In this document: one piece after another, positions 28,907-37,182 of the stretch
How positions within the stretch are numbered: position 1 is the stretch's first letter
Layout: every line of letters starts with the position of its first letter
Origin: Candidatus Bathyarchaeota archaeon
Lineage (GTDB): Archaea > Thermoproteota > Bathyarchaeia > Bathyarchaeales > Bathycorpusculaceae
NCBI GenBank assembly: GCA_963775465.1
Contig: CAVZIW010000004.1
Location: forward strand, 96,001 to 160,000
Direction of reading: 5' to 3'
DNA length: 64,000 nt
The notes under the pieces: model-generated
Seen by the model: only the letters and a program-made list of their open reading frames with translations
The model's database searches: none
Told to the model about the DNA's origin: nothing
Program-made: the position numbers and the translations under genes

Positions 28907-29827
28907 ATGCGTAGATTTTTTCTGTATCTGTTGATTACGATTTTAGTGTCCACTCTGGTGGTAAGCAACTGCAGAGTGATGGGACAGAGTCAAGATACAT
29001 ATTCTGTTCAACTTCAGGGTTGGGTTTGGAACCATACAGCACTCCAAGTTTTAGTCATAAATTCTGTAAACGAATCTTGGTGGGATCCCAATTATCTTAA
29101 TGCAACACTTCGCGCCATTGGTCAATGGAACGATGCCTTCTCAGCGTTCGCGGAGAATTATTCAGATTTCTCTTACCTGTCGAGCCTAAAAATTGAGGAA
29201 ATTGTTGCTAGTGAAAATATGCCTGGGTTTGATATTTATGTTAATTGGACGCAGTTTCCGCTGAGCAACACTTCTAACGAGGTGGGCTTGTCCACGCTTT
29301 ATCCAAGGCGCGACAGCACCATTAATTATAGCACGATCAACCTCGCCACCCATACCATGCATGGAGATGCTTTAAGTGTGGGTGATATGCAAAACATCGC
29401 TCTTCACGAATTTGGACACAGTTTAGGGCTTGGTCATAGTAATTATGCTGGCGATTTAATGTATGCAAGCTACTCCATGAGTAGCGCTGCAGAATCAATT
29501 TCGACACTTGACGCTTATGGTATAGCAACATTGTTTGCTTGGAAAATAGAGCCTTCAAGTTTTTATCCTATTCGGAATTGGTTAGTTGCAAACTCGGCGG
29601 TTTTGCCTTCAGACATACCGTTTGAAGGGCTGCCTGTTTCCCAGCAAAATGTTAGCCCTCAAACAGCGGCTGAAAATCCTGTGATTCAAATTTTGGTATT
29701 GATGTTTGAGATTTTGATTCATCCAGAAGTTTTTTCGGTCGTTTTAGTGTTTATCATAGTTTTTGTGTTGATAGCGTTGATTCCGCGTAGAAAAAAATCT
29801 GCGGATACTACTATGGTTGGCTCATGA
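28907..29827 (+). CDS. Membrane-anchored matrixin-like (metzincin) metalloprotease
   Basis: Signal peptide, HEFGHSLGLGH, Met-turn DLMY, C-terminal TM. Confidence 0.88.
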   Translation: MRRFFLYLLITILVSTLVVSNCRVMGQSQDTYSVQLQGWVWNHTALQVLVINSVNESWWDPNYLNATLRAIGQWNDAFSAFAENYSDFSYLSSLKIEEIVASENMPGFDIYVNWTQFPLSNTSNEVGLSTLYPRRDSTINYSTINLATHTMHGDALSVGDMQNIALHEFGHSLGLGHSNYAGDLMYASYSMSSAAESISTLDAYGIATLFAWKIEPSSFYPIRNWLVANSAVLPSDIPFEGLPVSQQNVSPQTAAENPVIQILVLMFEILIHPEVFSVVLVFIIVFVLIALIPRRKKSADTTMVGS

Positions 29828-30918: not shown

Positions 30919-30984
30919 TTAATCACCTGTGGGCTTTTATTCTAGCTATTTTAGTTGCCTAAATTTGTTTCCGAGCCTAAATGT

Positions 30985-31735: not shown

Positions 31736-33154
31736 CTATTTTCCTTTCAACAAAAGCCAGTCTTTGTCGCCTGCCCGTTTTAGCCTCACTAGAATGTAGC
31801 GTCCTTTAAGGCGATTGCCGTCGAGTGTGACTTCAATCTTGTCATTTTCCCAAAGCTTTGGTTCATAATAGCCTTTGTCCCAAATCTTTACTGTTCCAGC
31901 GCCATACTGCCCTTTTGGAATTTCCCCTTCGAAACTTGCATAGTCGTATGGGTGATCTTCGACTTCCACTGCTAAGACTTTCTGTCCAACTTCAGGGATA
32001 CCCTTTGGAACTGCCCAACTCTTCAAGACACCATCTTTTTCTAGTCGCAGATCATAATGGAGTCTTCGTGCATGGTGTTCTTGGATAACAAAGATTAGTT
32101 TGCCTTTCTTTTTTTCTATGGAGGCTTTTGGTTCGGGGGTTTCTTCAAAACGGCGTTTTGAGGCGTATTCTGATAGTGGTGTTGAGTTTGTGTGACCAGT
32201 TTTTTTGTTTTCCACAATCTGGTCGATTATGCATTCTGATGGCAGTTTATCGTCTCTTAGGCGTTTAAATCGTGCCATCCTCAACCTCATGTCCCGGGTT
32301 AAGACTTGATAGGCTACTTCGCAAACTAGCTTGGGTTCAAGCCAAGTAACTATATCGCCCGTTTCTGGTTTGAATGGAGCAACTTGTGTTTTTATTTTTT
32401 CAAATTTGTCAATTAAGAGTCTGATCATTTCCTGTGTGAAACCCGTTCCGACCTTCCCCAAATAAACGGGTTTGTTCCCGTCGTAAACCCCAATCAGGAG
32501 CGCTCCGAAGGTTGCGTTTCGGGATTTGCTGCCTTTTGAGTAGCCAAAGATTACGCAGTCACATGTTTTTAGTTTCTTTATTTTCAGCCAGCTCCCTGTC
32601 CGTAAAGCTTCCTCATACTCGCTATCCTTTCTTTTCGCCACAATCCCTTCCAAGCCCTTTGCCAAAGCGGATTCAAAGTAAGCTTCCCCTTTTTCCTCTA
32701 TAAAATCGCACAAGAGCACGTTAGCTCCTTCTTTCAACGAGTCCTTCAGAATTTCTTTGCGCTTCATCAAGGGCAGATTAGTGAGTGATTTTCCATCTTT
32801 TTCTAAAATGTCAAAAACGATGTAGACTGCAGGTAGTTTGCTTGAATGCCTTTGGATTTCAAGTTTGGAAACTGCTGCCCCACGCTCCAGCAGAGATTGG
32901 AAGTCGGGTTTGCCTTCACGCATGACAATGATTTCCCCGTCGACCACAATGTTACTGGCAAGCTTTTTTAGTTCTATAAGTTCGGGAAAGCTTTGTTTTA
33001 GCTCTTTCATGTTTCGGCTCTTGAGGCTAAAGGGTTCTTCAATGTAGGCGATTGCCCTAAATCCGTCCCATTTTACCTCAAAAATCCAGTCTTTATTCGA
33101 AAAAGCTTTCTCGGCAACCTTTGCAAGCATCGGGCGGTAGTTGTGGCGACTCAT
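31736..33154 (-). CDS. ligD: NHEJ ATP-dependent DNA ligase (LigD LIG domain) fused to a C-terminal 3'-phosphoesterase (PE) domain
   Basis: EVKWDGFR, VDGEI, VFDIL, EGIVAK, WLKIK and GKVGTGF; then EYASKRRFEETPEP, FVIQEHHARRLHYDLRLE, SWAVPKG, VEDHP and GTVKIWD. Confidence 0.92.
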   Translation of the reverse strand: MSRHNYRPMLAKVAEKAFSNKDWIFEVKWDGFRAIAYIEEPFSLKSRNMKELKQSFPELIELKKLASNIVVDGEIIVMREGKPDFQSLLERGAAVSKLEIQRHSSKLPAVYIVFDILEKDGKSLTNLPLMKRKEILKDSLKEGANVLLCDFIEEKGEAYFESALAKGLEGIVAKRKDSEYEEALRTGSWLKIKKLKTCDCVIFGYSKGSKSRNATFGALLIGVYDGNKPVYLGKVGTGFTQEMIRLLIDKFEKIKTQVAPFKPETGDIVTWLEPKLVCEVAYQVLTRDMRLRMARFKRLRDDKLPSECIIDQIVENKKTGHTNSTPLSEYASKRRFEETPEPKASIEKKKGKLIFVIQEHHARRLHYDLRLEKDGVLKSWAVPKGIPEVGQKVLAVEVEDHPYDYASFEGEIPKGQYGAGTVKIWDKGYYEPKLWENDKIEVTLDGNRLKGRYILVRLKRAGDKDWLLLKGK

Positions 33155-34008
33155 TTCTGCTCCAACTGCTTGAGGGTGTCACGTAGAGCAACCATAAGAC
33201 TCTTCGCTTCGACTTCTGGAGGCTTCTCGATGTGGATTTTTTCGCCTTTCACCTTTTGCTTAACCAGTTCTTGGACGCGTTTCATGTAGGTGTCTTCGAA
33301 TTCTGTTATGTCAAATTCGCCTGAGAGGTCAGATACGATTTTAACTGCAAGATCTAACTCTGTTTTCTGTGGAGTCTCGAGTTTGTGTAAGGGTTCAAAG
33401 TCTGTAGGGTCTACGACGTCGTAGGCGTAGCGGAGTGTTGTTATGACTAGAGCGCCTTTGTAGGTGTGTAGTAATGCGGGGTATTCTTTGGTTCGTAGGG
33501 TTATGCGGGCAGCACCTGCTTTGTTTGTTTTTTCTAATGCGTTAAATAGTAGACTGTAGGCGTCTTTGCTTTTGTCAGGTAACAAAGCGTAGGTTCGGTC
33601 AAAATAGACGGGATCTACTGAAAAGTAATCTACAAACTTGCTGATTCGGATGCGCCTGTCCGATTCGGGTTTGGCGGCGTTGAGTTCTTTTTGGTCAAAG
33701 GTTATGTATTCGTTTTTGGCGACTTCGTAGCCGCGGACAACTTCATTCCAAGGGACAATCTTGTCGTCTTTAGTGCACATTTTAACGTATTTTAAGGGTT
33801 GACCATCGACCTTATGCAAAAAATGAAACGATATACCCTTGTCATAAATCATCGAAAATAACTTAACAGGCACATTTACTAAGCCGATGGTGATGTTTCC
33901 CGACCAAATAGACCTGCTTGGGGCGGGCGCACTGGTTTTTTCTGTTTCGGATCGCTCCGAGTTTTTTGTTTGTTCTTCTTGCTCTGAACCCAAAAGATAT
34001 CTCTCCAA
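33151..34008 (-). CDS. ku: Prokaryotic Ku protein
   Basis: RSIWSGNITIGLVNVPVKL, VRGYEV, DPVYFDRTY and C-terminal SLMVALRDTL helix; exact start uncertain. Confidence 0.93.
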   Translation of the reverse strand: MERYLLGSEQEEQTKNSERSETEKTSAPAPSRSIWSGNITIGLVNVPVKLFSMIYDKGISFHFLHKVDGQPLKYVKMCTKDDKIVPWNEVVRGYEVAKNEYITFDQKELNAAKPESDRRIRISKFVDYFSVDPVYFDRTYALLPDKSKDAYSLLFNALEKTNKAGAARITLRTKEYPALLHTYKGALVITTLRYAYDVVDPTDFEPLHKLETPQKTELDLAVKIVSDLSGEFDITEFEDTYMKRVQELVKQKVKGEKIHIEKPPEVEAKSLMVALRDTLKQLEQK

Positions 34009-34118
34009 AAATCTTAAAAATCAAGCACTAGATCTATACGTTTTCAAGGTTTTAACCTTTTTCAAAACAGGAAGAAGATTATAGAAAAAGCAGTTCTGTC
34101 CCTATTTTCATGAGCAGT

Positions 34119-35327
34119 TTATTTTTTCTTTTTTGGTTGCTTCATATTGTTAGCTTTAAAGGCAGCCAATGCGGCTTCTGCTTTTGGACCGCCTAATTCT
34201 TTTGCGACTTCTTTGAGTTTTTCAGGTATGTTTATGCCTTGTGGACACCGCACCATACATTGTTTGCAGTCTTTGCATAGAGCTGCATCCGCGCGAATAC
34301 CGGTCAATCCGCCCATCAAAAACATGGCGTACATGCCACGAGCCTGCTGTTCATCGCCTGAAATGTAGAGGTCATTGTAGGCTTGAAAGTTTCGGGGGAT
34401 GCTAACGCCATTGGGGCAGGGCATGCAATATTGGCATCCTGTGCAGGGTACTTTGAGTAGTTTGCGATATGCATCGGAGACAGATTTTATCACTTTGAGT
34501 TCATTTGGATTCATGGAGCTGGGCAATGCGGATTCAGCAGTTTTGATGTTTTCGAGTATTTGCTTTTCCTGGTTCATCCCTGACAAAACGAGGGTTACTT
34601 CAGGATGATTCCAAACCCATCGCAGCCCCCATTCAGCAGGAGTCCGCTTAATTGGCACTGCATCGTAGATTTTTTGGGCTTCAACTGGCAATTTGTTGGC
34701 TAAGCTGCCGCCTCGCAACGGCTCCATAACCATAACCGCGAGTTTTTTGGAAGCCGCATACTTTAGGCCTTCAGTGCCAGCCTGTAATTTCTCGTCAAGA
34801 AAGTTGTATTGGATTTGGCACATAGTCCAATCGTTGGCTTCTATGATTTCTTTGAAGGTTGAAATGGAACCGTGGAATGAGAAGCCCATGTTAGCGATTT
34901 TGCCTTCTTTTTTGGCTTTTTCAAGGAATTTTAGAGCTCCGAACCTTTGCATTTTTTTCCAGAACTCTGCCTCAAGTCCATGCAGCAGGTAATAGTCTAT
35001 GTGGTCGGTTTGGAGTTTTTGAAGCTGTGTATTTAACATTTTTTCCATATCTTCAGCTTTATGAAGCATGAAGGGTGTAAGTTTAGTGGCGATTTTTACT
35101 TTGTTTCGGTAACCGTCAAGTAACGCTTTTCCCAGTATTTTTTCGCTTTCGCCCATATGGTAGGGTGGAGCAGAATCAACATAGTTTACGCCGTTTTCTA
35201 TGGCTAAGCGGATTTGTTTGATGGCGCGTTCTTCATCAACAACTTGTTCTTTCATGGGGAGACGCATACATCCGAATCCGAGAACAGATAGTTTGTCGCC
35301 GTTTTTTGGAACAATCCTGTATTGCAT
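34119..35327 (-). CDS. Aldo/keto reductase with C-terminal 4Fe-4S dicluster domain
   Basis: LGFGCMRLP, DYYLLH, VMEPLRGG; CTGCQYCMPCP and CKDCKQCMVRCP. Confidence 0.9.
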   Translation of the reverse strand: MQYRIVPKNGDKLSVLGFGCMRLPMKEQVVDEERAIKQIRLAIENGVNYVDSAPPYHMGESEKILGKALLDGYRNKVKIATKLTPFMLHKAEDMEKMLNTQLQKLQTDHIDYYLLHGLEAEFWKKMQRFGALKFLEKAKKEGKIANMGFSFHGSISTFKEIIEANDWTMCQIQYNFLDEKLQAGTEGLKYAASKKLAVMVMEPLRGGSLANKLPVEAQKIYDAVPIKRTPAEWGLRWVWNHPEVTLVLSGMNQEKQILENIKTAESALPSSMNPNELKVIKSVSDAYRKLLKVPCTGCQYCMPCPNGVSIPRNFQAYNDLYISGDEQQARGMYAMFLMGGLTGIRADAALCKDCKQCMVRCPQGINIPEKLKEVAKELGGPKAEAALAAFKANNMKQPKKKK

Positions 35328-35361
35328 ATTCTACACTCCGTCTAACCAAAAACACATTTTA

Positions 35362-35377
35362 TTGACTGAGTAGTCAA
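35362..35377. promoter_or_regulatory. Palindromic operator candidate TTGACT-N4-AGTCAA upstream of the aldo/keto reductase
   Basis: Perfect 6-bp arms ~35 nt upstream of the ATG, next to an AT-rich TATA-like box. Confidence 0.45.
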
Positions 35378-35426
35378 CATAAAATATTTTTACCTTTAAA
35401 CCTTACCGAATCTACTTGCGAAAATC

Positions 35427-36299
35427 TTAAATTTTCAGTTTGCATTTTTTCTCAAAAATATCTTTCCACGGATTACTATTCCGCTTGGCTACACTAAAAA
35501 TAGTGTAATCAGAAGGAGTTATGCCTTTTTTTACTTCGCTCCATTCCATCGGCGTAGAAACTGTTGCGTTTGGAGTAGACCTCAAACTATATGGTATTAC
35601 CATGGTTCGCATCGGAGAATTCTGAAGGTAATCAGCGAAAACTTTTCCCGGCTTTTTGGTATCTTTGAATTCGGAAACAACCAAATCGTTTTCTTTAGCT
35701 AATTCGATTCCTATGCTGTGAACGAAAGCGCGGGTTTTCTCAAACGAGTGTTCAGGAAAGATGGGGATCACAACATGCAAGCCTTTTTTGCCTGAAGTTT
35801 TGACAAAGGGTGTTAGCCCAAGCTCTAAGAGTTTGTCTTTTAGAAGCAAAGCAACTTCGGCTGCGTCACTTAATGTTGCAGGCGGTTCAGGGTCAACGTC
35901 AAAAAAGAGCAGGTCTGGTTTGTTCAAGTCTTCCGTAGTGGAAAATGGCATGTGAATTTCGATTGAAGCCAAGTTTGCAAGCCAGATTAAGGTGTCTAGG
36001 TCATTGCAAACTATGTAGGCTACGTCTCGTTTGGATGCTGGAGAATAGATGCTTTTGGTTTTTACCCATTTTGGTGTGCCTTGGGGAGCGTTCTTTTCGT
36101 AAAAGCTTACTTTTTTGTGATCTACTCCATCGGGATAACGAGTTAAAACTAGAGGTCGATTAGCGATGATTGGAAGAATTTTTGGAGCCATTTTGATATA
36201 GTGTTCGATTACTTGGGCCTTGGTTACTTTGATTTCTGGGTAGAATGTTTTATTCAAGTTTTTTAAGCCAACTTTAGTTAAGTGTTTGAGTTCTTCCAT
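35427..36299 (-). CDS. NHEJ primase-polymerase (LigD POL domain), stand-alone
   Basis: LKNLNKTFYP, LTRYPDG, FYEKNAP, FDVDP, KTSGKKGLHV, DYLQN, PYSLR, VSTPMEW. Confidence 0.92.
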   Translation of the reverse strand: MEELKHLTKVGLKNLNKTFYPEIKVTKAQVIEHYIKMAPKILPIIANRPLVLTRYPDGVDHKKVSFYEKNAPQGTPKWVKTKSIYSPASKRDVAYIVCNDLDTLIWLANLASIEIHMPFSTTEDLNKPDLLFFDVDPEPPATLSDAAEVALLLKDKLLELGLTPFVKTSGKKGLHVVIPIFPEHSFEKTRAFVHSIGIELAKENDLVVSEFKDTKKPGKVFADYLQNSPMRTMVIPYSLRSTPNATVSTPMEWSEVKKGITPSDYTIFSVAKRNSNPWKDIFEKKCKLKI

Positions 36300-36558: not shown

Positions 36559-37182
36559 ATGAAACCAAAAAAGCCGACCTTAGAAGATCAACTCGCATTT
36601 ATCTCAGCCCAAAACGATATTTATCCAACTGAGCTCTTCCAAGCTTTAGTTTCATCAAAAGAAGAAGGCAAAACAGCAGTAGCAAACTTAACAATAGAAT
36701 ATAGAGGAAACATTAACGATCAAGCTATCTTCCTCATAAAGAAAGACGACAAAGTCGTTGCACAATTCAGAGTCCCAGAAGAAACACTATCAAGAAAAGA
36801 CGTTTCTTTTGACAACTGGATGGATACAAGCAGGATACGCAAAGAAATCGCCAAACAAAACCCATTGCCCTCGCATCTAAAAATCGAGGATTTGCGGGTT
36901 GGAATGAAAAAAATAAACTTAAACCTGGAAGTTTTAGAGACCGCCGAACCAGCAAGGGTTCACACTCAGTTTAGGGACAATGCAATCGTTTCAAATGCAG
37001 TTGTTGGAGATGAAACTGGAAAGATTCTGTTGTGCCTCTGGGATCAACAAATTAACTCTGTTGCTACAGGCGATTTCATAGAGGTCAAAAATGCACACGT
37101 TGCCATGTTTAAAGGCGAAAAACAATTGCGACTGGGCAAAAACGGAACAATCACTGTTCTTGAAAAACCACTCAGCAACTAA
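36559..37182 (+). CDS. OB-fold ssDNA-binding (SSB/RPA-like) protein with N-terminal extension
   Basis: C-terminal KIEDLRVGMKKINL...VGDETGKILLCLWD...VKNAHV..FKGEKQL single OB fold. Confidence 0.8.
   Translation: MKPKKPTLEDQLAFISAQNDIYPTELFQALVSSKEEGKTAVANLTIEYRGNINDQAIFLIKKDDKVVAQFRVPEETLSRKDVSFDNWMDTSRIRKEIAKQNPLPSHLKIEDLRVGMKKINLNLEVLETAEPARVHTQFRDNAIVSNAVVGDETGKILLCLWDQQINSVATGDFIEVKNAHVAMFKGEKQLRLGKNGTITVLEKPLSN

Follow-up and report, generated by a model that had tools for sequence, protein, structure and literature searches.

The closest described counterpart of the system treated here is the archaeo-prokaryotic non-homologous end joining (AP-NHEJ) of Methanocella paludicola, made up of Ku, a primase-polymerase (Pol), a 3'-phosphoesterase (PE) and a ligase (Lig), as outlined in PMC4797286 and PMC12019639 after Bartlett et al. 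2013. Passages of PMC8708640, PMC7554672 and PMC12019639 call Ku extremely rare in archaea and name M. paludicola as the only one with a complete set; Ku together with a ligase is quoted for 10 of 243 archaeal genomes (Sharda et al. 2020). A 2023 bioRxiv preprint, using BLAST, credits 97 archaeal species with the full set of four parts, and Bathyarchaeia are not named in the portions of its text covered here. A literature search combining Bathyarchaeota or Bathyarchaeia with non-homologous end joining (NHEJ), with supplementary species lists outside its reach, returned no description of the system presented below.

Here, we analyse a stretch of 64,000 nucleotides (hereafter, the window) from the genome of a Candidatus Bathyarchaeota archaeon (assembly GCA_963775465.1, contig CAVZIW010000004.1, positions 96,001 to 160,000). 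In all probability, this genome carries a chromosomal, vertically maintained AP-NHEJ cassette, composed of Pol, Ku, a ligase–phosphoesterase fusion (Lig::PE) and a tightly coupled gene of the DUF72 family. The cassette is ordinary in kind—AP-NHEJ being already known—and common rather than exceptional in this lineage. We infer the biochemical activities of the proteins, the stimulation of the ligase by Ku and the role of DUF72, with the mechanism modelled by homology on the systems of Methanocella paludicola, Mycobacterium and Pseudomonas.

Organisation and conservation of the end-joining genes

The genes belong to a minus-strand series of six head-to-tail open reading frames (ORFs)—Pol, an aldo/keto reductase (AKR), Ku, Lig::PE, DUF72 and an HD-domain gene—followed by a metallo-beta-lactamase-fold gene (Table 1). 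Pol and AKR are separated by 99 nt, AKR and Ku by 110 nt, and DUF72 and the HD-domain gene by 66 nt; Ku and Lig::PE overlap by 4 nt, and DUF72 starts 4 nt past the Lig::PE stop. The initial annotation of the window had placed all four prokaryotic NHEJ activities on one strand within 4.6 kb. The set is indeed complete and intact, with the profile scores of Ku, Lig, PE and Pol each exceeding the curated NCBIfam cut-off and the catalytic residues present. The four activities reside, however, in three proteins, and 1.2 kb of the interval is an unrelated AKR gene; with Lig and PE fused, the likeness drawn to the separate proteins of M. paludicola does not carry over. Three features had thus been overlooked: the Lig::PE fusion, the inserted AKR and the place of DUF72 in the conserved unit. 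Genome-wide, there is one Ku, one Pol and one PE, and a separate 590-aa ATP-dependent ligase is encoded elsewhere, so that the cassette ligase is not the only one. Both Lig::PE (232.6 bits) and Pol (242.6 bits) miss the cut-off of the canonical three-domain LigD model TIGR02776 (373.2 bits), and Pol is a separate gene—on these grounds, the locus is a split or 'non-conventional' NHEJ set rather than a LigD sensu stricto.

Ku scores 247.2 bits against TIGR02772 (cut-off, 150) and 136.4 bits against PF02735 (cut-off, 25). Its nearest solved structure is the bacterial Ku 9vnq (E 6.3e-43), and matches to solved bacterial Ku proteins range from E 6e-43 to 2e-36. In the sequence cagaaATGAgtcgc, the Ku stop codon TGA overlaps the ligase ATG by 4 nt (ATGA), a junction already noted in the initial annotation and read here directly. 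According to ORF calls, the same 4-nt overlap recurs in 30 of 32 related loci, the two exceptions being degraded loci. Ku and ligase are a textbook interacting pair, and a C-terminal motif following the Ku core is said to recruit LigD; a C-terminal motif, K-[ENS]-L-M-[VES]-A-L, is present in all 11 aligned Bathyarchaeia Ku proteins, which include both locus types described below. We predict that Ku and ligase are translationally coupled within one transcription unit, and this coupling, taken together with co-inheritance, reads as a signature of end joining.

The ligase part of the fusion matches TIGR02779 with 270.2 bits (cut-off, 227.75) over residues 8–308 and the OB-domain family PF04679 with 87.8 bits, and has no N-terminal DNA-binding domain. 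Residues of motifs I, III, IV and V—K28 (KWDG), D30, G31, D115, E169, K174, K191 and K193—are shared by all 25 orthologues. Among solved structures, the ligase domain of M. tuberculosis LigD comes closest (1vs0, E 7.4e-36). The PE part scores 191.1 bits against TIGR02777 (cut-off, 144) over residues 327–471. Residues H360, H366, D368, R370, E372, H401 and Y405 are likewise invariant (25/25), and H360, H366, D368, R370, H401 and Y405 align to the active site of the Korarchaeum PE. Its nearest solved structure is 3p43 (E 2e-46), which we take to be the Methanosarcina barkeri PE (151 aa); 3p4h (E 1.6e-36) and the M. paludicola PE 5dmp (E 3.4e-30) match less closely.

For wider comparison, we sampled the 80 best Ku loci of a species-representative genome collection. 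All eight archaeal cassette loci in this sample have the Lig-PE domain order and none of the 72 others does, the bacterial fusions being PE-Lig, PE-Lig-Pol, Lig-Pol and PE-Pol. The idea that the Lig-PE order is unique to archaea was nonetheless rejected, as bacterial Lig-PE-Pol proteins exist: among the best 150 representatives of 1.84 billion proteins, nine match both Lig and PE collinearly, and five of these are Lig-PE-Pol, four with organism names (Blastocatellia, Planctomycetota, Parapedobacter and Opitutia). Metagenome pipelines annotate the two-domain Lig::PE as 'bifunctional NHEJ protein LigD'.

Pol reaches 242.6 bits against TIGR02778 (cut-off, 214.7), with the NHEJ Pol of Methanocella paludicola as the nearest solved structure (5dmu, E 1.8e-42). 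Hallmarks of the AEP fold are a DxD motif with a third catalytic Asp and an SGxxGxH motif, the latter being present in the window Pol. Residues D134, D136, S169, H175, D223 and N227 are invariant in 23 of 23 cassette orthologues, and D134, D136, D223, S169 and H175 align with the sequences of 5dmu and 5op0. Among congeners, synonymous sites are saturated and the cassette proteins are 57–90% identical; dN/dS, where defined, lies at 0.02–0.17, a rough bound since dS was >2 or undefined in all pairs tried. The cassette is under purifying selection.

The AKR gene is a later, lineage-specific insertion and not an NHEJ component: of 12 related loci, just two (L012 and L013) have it between Pol and Ku, and none of the 20 class-level loci carries it. 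It is also missing from the closest Ku relatives (L020, L074, L075 and L077), i.e., its occurrence is patchy within the genus.

Host genome, distribution and phylogeny of the cassette

The contig carries an archaeal 16S rRNA gene (1474.5 bits) at positions 86580–88073, about 8 kb before the window. The closest public Ku loci, at 75–88% identity, belong to Candidatus Bathyarchaeota or Bathyarchaeia archaeon records, and these names bear out the Bathyarchaeia lineage proposed in the initial annotation. Additionally, a Lig::PE homologue at 76% identity carries the NCBI name Bathyarchaeota NHEJ ligase. Independent contigs from four public runs span DUF72-Lig::PE, Lig-Ku-AKR and AKR-Pol-next gene with no joints, at an identity to the window of at least 99% for most pieces; this comparison used assembled contigs and measures contiguity only. 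Synteny is kept in the single-contig genomes of three relatives (G003, G014 and G040). The contig is archaeal, and chimerism is excluded by the independent assemblies and 12 syntenic relatives. The chimeric or bacterial origin that the initial annotation had entertained for this region is thus countered by bridged junctions, by synteny and by the archaea-only clades in the trees. The genome, in 15 contigs, is 92% complete with 3.45% estimated contamination; RadA is present, and no NurA (PF09376) turned up at this level of completeness. All four runs show an extra A after window position 30978, in the spacer between DUF72 and the HD-domain gene, which points to an error in homopolymer length or to variation in the population. 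The public runs that contain at least half of the sampled sequence words are wetland metagenomes, and those with smaller shares include soil metagenomes.

Within the genus, 20 of 24 other genomes encode Ku; of 16 other genomes sampled from the order, only one does. All 12 genus- and order-level loci examined share Ku-Lig::PE-DUF72, and Pol adjoins it in 11. At class level, Ku occurs in 77 of 301 genomes (72 above the cut-off), which represent 15 of 107 genera and cluster in three families (f1, f24 and f35); outside the class, a phylum sample of 401 genomes yielded Ku in two genomes only, both of family f46 (2/32). Two locus types can be told apart. Type A is the collinear Pol-Ku-Lig::PE-DUF72 arrangement (15 class-level loci, 47–68% identity to the window), with Lig::PE as one ORF in 12 of the 15. 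In type B (family f35; L054, L056–L058 and L055), Pol is divergent from Ku-Lig, identity falls to 35–40% and PE is not fused. Type B is more bacterial-like, and L055 has, at its flanks, a PE encoded on its own and a DUF72 from another lineage.

Past the Bathyarchaeia, the next Ku relatives among the best 80 loci are in a Methanosarcinales metagenome-assembled genome (MAG; 56% identity) and a Methanomicrobiales MAG (52%), with bacteria at no more than 42%. Both MAG loci read Pol-Ku-Lig::PE, and the Methanosarcinales one has DUF72 as well. In the classes of these two MAGs, the window Ku finds matches in 69 and 53 genomes, respectively, of 251 in each class. Twenty loci of the former class comprise seven Pol-Ku-Lig::PE sets (four with DUF72), ten Ku-Lig pairs and three with Ku alone or Ku+PE; twenty of the latter comprise ten with Pol-Ku-Lig-PE order (nine fused) and six with Pol-Ku-PE. 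Two arrangements stand out: L169–L178, in the class of the Methanosarcinales MAG, are Ku-Lig pairs without Pol or PE, and L181–L185 and L190, in that of the Methanomicrobiales MAG, are Pol-Ku-PE loci with the ligase elsewhere or absent from view.

The view of complete NHEJ as rare in archaea, shared by the initial annotation, is at odds with these counts: roughly a fifth to a quarter of the species-level genomes in three large archaeal classes carry Ku, in contrast with the published rarity. The same cassette is, moreover, automatically annotated as LigD-like in many metagenome records. Regarding genome size, the median in the order sample is ~2.5 Mb for Ku-positive (n=22) and 1.4 Mb for Ku-negative genomes (n=19), with the positives nearly all from one genus and some negatives incomplete. 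An association of NHEJ with genome size is reported for bacteria (in part of PMC7719229); among the relatives studied here, genome size is a pointer only, confounded by kinship. Together with the soil and wetland origin of the DNA runs, it is the sole pointer to the slow-growing or dormant lifestyle that, according to the initial annotation, end joining may suit.

The phylogenetic trees were quick maximum-likelihood searches, unrooted, of the best 80 loci plus hand-picked genomes. Cassette Ku (26 rows) and cassette ligase (36 rows) each form an archaea-only clade with SH-aLRT support of 100, and all archaeal Ku rows come together at SH-aLRT 90, on a branch that is not starred. The Pol tree is compatible with those of Ku and ligase, and branching in the Ku, ligase and DUF72 trees largely follows host families. 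Where the initial annotation had left a choice between bacterial horizontal transfer and an archaeal clade, the trees thus favour the latter: Pol-Ku-Lig::PE appears as one archaeal clade common to the Bathyarchaeia and two methanogen classes, hence to two phyla.

The DUF72 gene and neighbouring genes

All 27 type-A loci examined in the Bathyarchaeia have a DUF72 gene downstream of Lig::PE; three of these genes are partial or interrupted, and two are situated 1–2 kb away. Matches to the window DUF72 at E <=1e-20 occur in 177 of the 301 class genomes, which makes DUF72 as a whole a widespread family that does not depend on Ku. A different distribution is seen for the 45 strongest matches (E <=5.5e-52, 39–66% identity): 35 lie within ~4 kb of Ku on the same contig, seven are in genomes with Ku on another contig, and three have no Ku match—two of them at contig ends (with Lig::PE remnants, or with the neighbourhood beyond the assembled sequence) and one beside a truncated ligase-PE. 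In the DUF72 tree, 26 cassette proteins group together (SH-aLRT 92), apart from the two other DUF72 paralogues of the genome. A second lineage (99, starred) unites the NHEJ-adjoining DUF72 of a type-B Bathyarchaeia locus with two bacterial loci; among the best 80 Ku loci, DUF72 occurs within 6 kb in 2 of the 72 that lack the cassette. Cassette DUF72 proteins share an insert of ~12 residues (window protein, ~185–200), which is missing from the three other Ku-linked DUF72 aligned (L055, L142 and L146).

To our knowledge, no DUF72 member has a demonstrated activity. A DNA-repair role of the endonuclease-IV/UVDE type has been proposed for the family on structural or neighbourhood grounds, according to parts of PMC3828134 and PMC11791011. 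The former gives Tyr47, Tyr48, Lys72, His79 and Gln114 as the modelled DNA site of TM1631 and describes the DUF72 crystals as being without metal. A full-text literature search for DUF72 with 'end joining' retrieved no paper. The AlphaFold model of the window DUF72 (pLDDT 94.9) superposes on the DUF72 crystals 1vpy (Z 24.3) and 1vpq (Z 24.1), and the tier below these (Z 11.6–13.6) is a mixture of sugar epimerases/isomerases with endonuclease IV and UVDE. A Foldseek search with the model gave 3ngf and 3tc3 at E 2.6e-3. The fold search does not single out nucleases; judged from the model, the fold class seems compatible with a repair nuclease and not specific to one.

We put forward tentatively, at a little short of an even chance, that the cassette DUF72 is a dedicated fifth NHEJ enzyme. 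It could be a TIM-barrel nuclease or phosphoesterase, poor in metal, that acts ahead of Pol, PE and Lig, either cleaning up ends that are damaged or blocked or incising lesions beside breaks. On this proposal, it would be co-inherited with Pol-Ku-Lig::PE across the Bathyarchaeia and Methanosarcinales-type methanogens, and the second DUF72 lineage would apparently have been recruited independently beside ku/ligD in one type-B locus and some bacteria.

The two further DUF72 genes of the genome are near-identical (L199, C6:14000-27000; L200, C1:285000-298000). Both belong to a duplicated segment that also encodes a PQQ beta-propeller protein and a DUF5789 protein, and a 242-aa Rad51-like gene stands beside the C6 copy. 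A PolB2/iRadA-type repair operon beside these paralogues was considered and dropped as support, there being no polymerase. L200:11051-12652 (genome contig C1) is a 533-aa ORF with FixO and cbb3-type cytochrome c domains, unexpected in Bathyarchaeia, which could reflect either real respiratory capacity or binning contamination within the estimated 3.45%.

Around the cassette, an Ssb-like OB-fold gene is found in 11 of 12 genus- and order-level loci and in 0 of 20 class-level loci; its absence from the latter indicates that the protein is probably only a neighbour. A matrixin-like metalloprotease gene is kept beside the cassette in most congeners.

Table 1. Features of the end-joining locus and its surroundings (window positions).
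Feature	Position	Strand	Evidence
NHEJ primase-polymerase (LigD Pol/AEP), 290 aa	35427..36299	-	PF21686 E 1e-78; TIGR02778
Aldo/keto reductase with C-terminal 4Fe-4S dicluster domain, 402 aa	34119..35327	-	PF00248 E 3.6e-43; Fer4 domains
Ku, 285 aa from TTG start, core ~32-258	33151..34008	-	TIGR02772; PF02735 E 1.4e-39
ATGA overlap of Ku stop and ligase start	33151..33154	-	Direct sequence reading
Lig::PE fusion, 472 aa, one ORF	31736..33154	-	ORF call and profile matches
Ligase part of Lig::PE, residues 1-310, nucleotidyltransferase and OB	32225..33154	-	PF01068, PF04679, TIGR02779
3'-Phosphoesterase part of Lig::PE, residues 327-472	31736..32176	-	PF13298 E 9.6e-40; TIGR02777
DUF72 protein, cassette-specific subfamily, 248 aa	30985..31731	-	PF01904 193.4 bits, cut-off 25.3
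207-aa protein, C-terminal Ssb-like OB fold, unassigned N-terminal half	36559..37182	divergent from Pol	Near the cassette in 11 of 12 genus- and order-level loci
Matrixin-like zinc metalloprotease, secreted or membrane-anchored	28907..29827		PF00413, HEFGHSLGLGH motif

Proposed function and comparison with known systems

In the mechanism we propose, a Ku homodimer would thread onto the broken end and recruit the enzymes; Pol would bridge the ends and fill gaps, with a preference for ribonucleotides; PE would trim 3'-ribonucleotide runs and remove 3'-phosphates; and the ligase would seal the nick last. Since resection and sealing are predicted to reside on one Lig::PE polypeptide, the product of PE may be passed directly to the ligase. 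DUF72, a TIM barrel of the xylose-isomerase/AP-endonuclease-2 fold class, would serve as an accessory end- or lesion-processing enzyme.

Several observations weigh against a conserved and active end-joining cassette of this composition. Ku starts with TTG, leaving its start uncertain by a few codons, and with an unrelated gene between Pol and Ku, Pol may be transcribed separately here. Among the public runs listed as containing the sequence, 20 are DNA runs (wetland, soil and salt-marsh metagenomes) and none is an RNA run. Four of the 24 congeners have no Ku, two of them less than 70% complete, and decayed copies exist in relatives: G193 (L073) has a stop in Ku and a split Pol and Lig, G166 (L059) has a split PE, G229 (L069) has DUF72 in fragments, and G200 (L201) is without Ku and the ligase N-terminus, with the ligase C-terminus, PE and DUF72 remaining. 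The cassette is therefore dispensable. Nor is DUF72 essential to it, as three type-A genus loci (G017, G159 and G244) and all 20 loci from the class of the Methanomicrobiales MAG are without the gene. Finally, the DUF72 model matches sugar epimerases/isomerases (Z 12–13.6) as it does endonuclease IV (Z 11.7–12.8) and UVDE (Z 11.7).

The same genes might mainly serve repair other than that of double-strand breaks (DSBs)—acting on gaps, nicks, embedded ribonucleotides or abasic sites, as mycobacterial LigC and Prim-PolC do, with Ku auxiliary and DUF72 incising lesions. Prim-PolC and LigC are described in part of PMC12019639 as mending short excision-repair gaps, and the endonuclease-IV/UVDE-like role proposed for DUF72 (PMC3828134, PMC11791011, as far as these sources were covered) finds an echo in the endonuclease IV matches of the model. 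We nevertheless hold this reading to be improbable, given that Ku is co-inherited with the ligase and predicted to be translationally coupled to it in 30 of 32 loci, and that the fold match of DUF72 is not nuclease-specific.

End joining for the host chromosome could also be the wrong frame if the locus were a mobile or selfish module, or if it served mobile elements or defence, e.g., by circularising linear DNA. Its presence both in the Bathyarchaeia and in methanogens of two classes that belong to another phylum does imply inter-phylum transfer at some time, its occurrence in 15 of 107 class genera is patchy, and the GC content of the 32–34 kb bin is 0.438 against ~0.40 for the contig. On the other hand, the chromosomal neighbours are constant across the genus, the Ku, ligase and DUF72 trees largely follow host families, no integrase or transposase was found at 17.9–48.7 kb of the window (where genes for glycosyltransferases, an epimerase, a matrixin-like protease and similar proteins lie), and no tRNA flanks the cassette within ~12 kb, the sole tRNA being at 8.8 kb; a mobile module is, on this balance, very unlikely. 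We give hardly any credence to a non-functional relic or to an artefact of assembly or binning that put bacterial DNA into an archaeal bin. The 15-contig assembly with its estimated contamination and the decayed copies in relatives would fit such an origin, yet the archaeal 16S rRNA gene is on the same contig, four independent runs bridge the gene junctions at identities of at least 99%, synteny holds in the single-contig relatives, all ORFs are uninterrupted and keep the invariant catalytic residues, and dN/dS is well below 1. A chromosomal AP-NHEJ cassette hence remains the preferred reading.

What the analysis adds is a corrected anatomy of the locus (Lig::PE, AKR and DUF72), an archaeal cassette clade and a candidate accessory gene. 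This shifts the baseline for DSB repair in mesophilic, soil and sediment archaea, and offers a compact two-activity Lig::PE protein for study; a DUF72 subfamily genetically tied to end joining, moreover, makes its function directly testable.

Compared with known systems, the cassette resembles that of M. paludicola in its four activities and archaeal host, with the M. paludicola Pol (5dmu) as the nearest solved structure to the window Pol; the M. paludicola PE is described, in the accounts covered, as operonic with Pol and Lig. The window differs in its Lig::PE fusion, its Pol-Ku-Lig::PE order, the coupled DUF72 and a host of a different phylum, and 3p43 (E 2e-46) is a better match to its PE than the M. 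paludicola PE is. With bacterial Ku and LigD (M. tuberculosis, P. aeruginosa and B. subtilis), the cassette shares Pfam and NCBIfam families, catalytic residues and a ku gene adjoining the ligase gene, whereas a three-domain LigD is missing from the window. The window PE corresponds to the minimised, stand-alone archaeal form described in parts of PMC3082917 for Methanosarcina barkeri and Candidatus Korarchaeum cryptofilum—two His and one Asp as metal ligands, and Arg, His and Tyr as phosphate ligands, align in it—but here it sits at the ligase C-terminus, joined by a linker of ~16 residues. A complete NHEJ complex is also reported, in part of PMC7554672, for the Nitrososphaerales, soil ammonia oxidisers that are likewise mesophilic soil TACK archaea; that set is presented there as a bacterial acquisition, while the Bathyarchaeia cassette falls into an archaea-only clade with methanogens. 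With regard to DUF72, the counterparts are TM1631 (1vpq) and EF0366 (1vpy, 1ztv). The window protein matches 1vpq at E 2.1e-20, and by residue numbering alone, its invariant F47/Y48, K72, H79 and Q110 recall the DNA-site residues modelled for TM1631 in the sections covered of PMC3828134; the cassette DUF72 is set apart from both by its ~12-residue insert and by its physical coupling to NHEJ genes.

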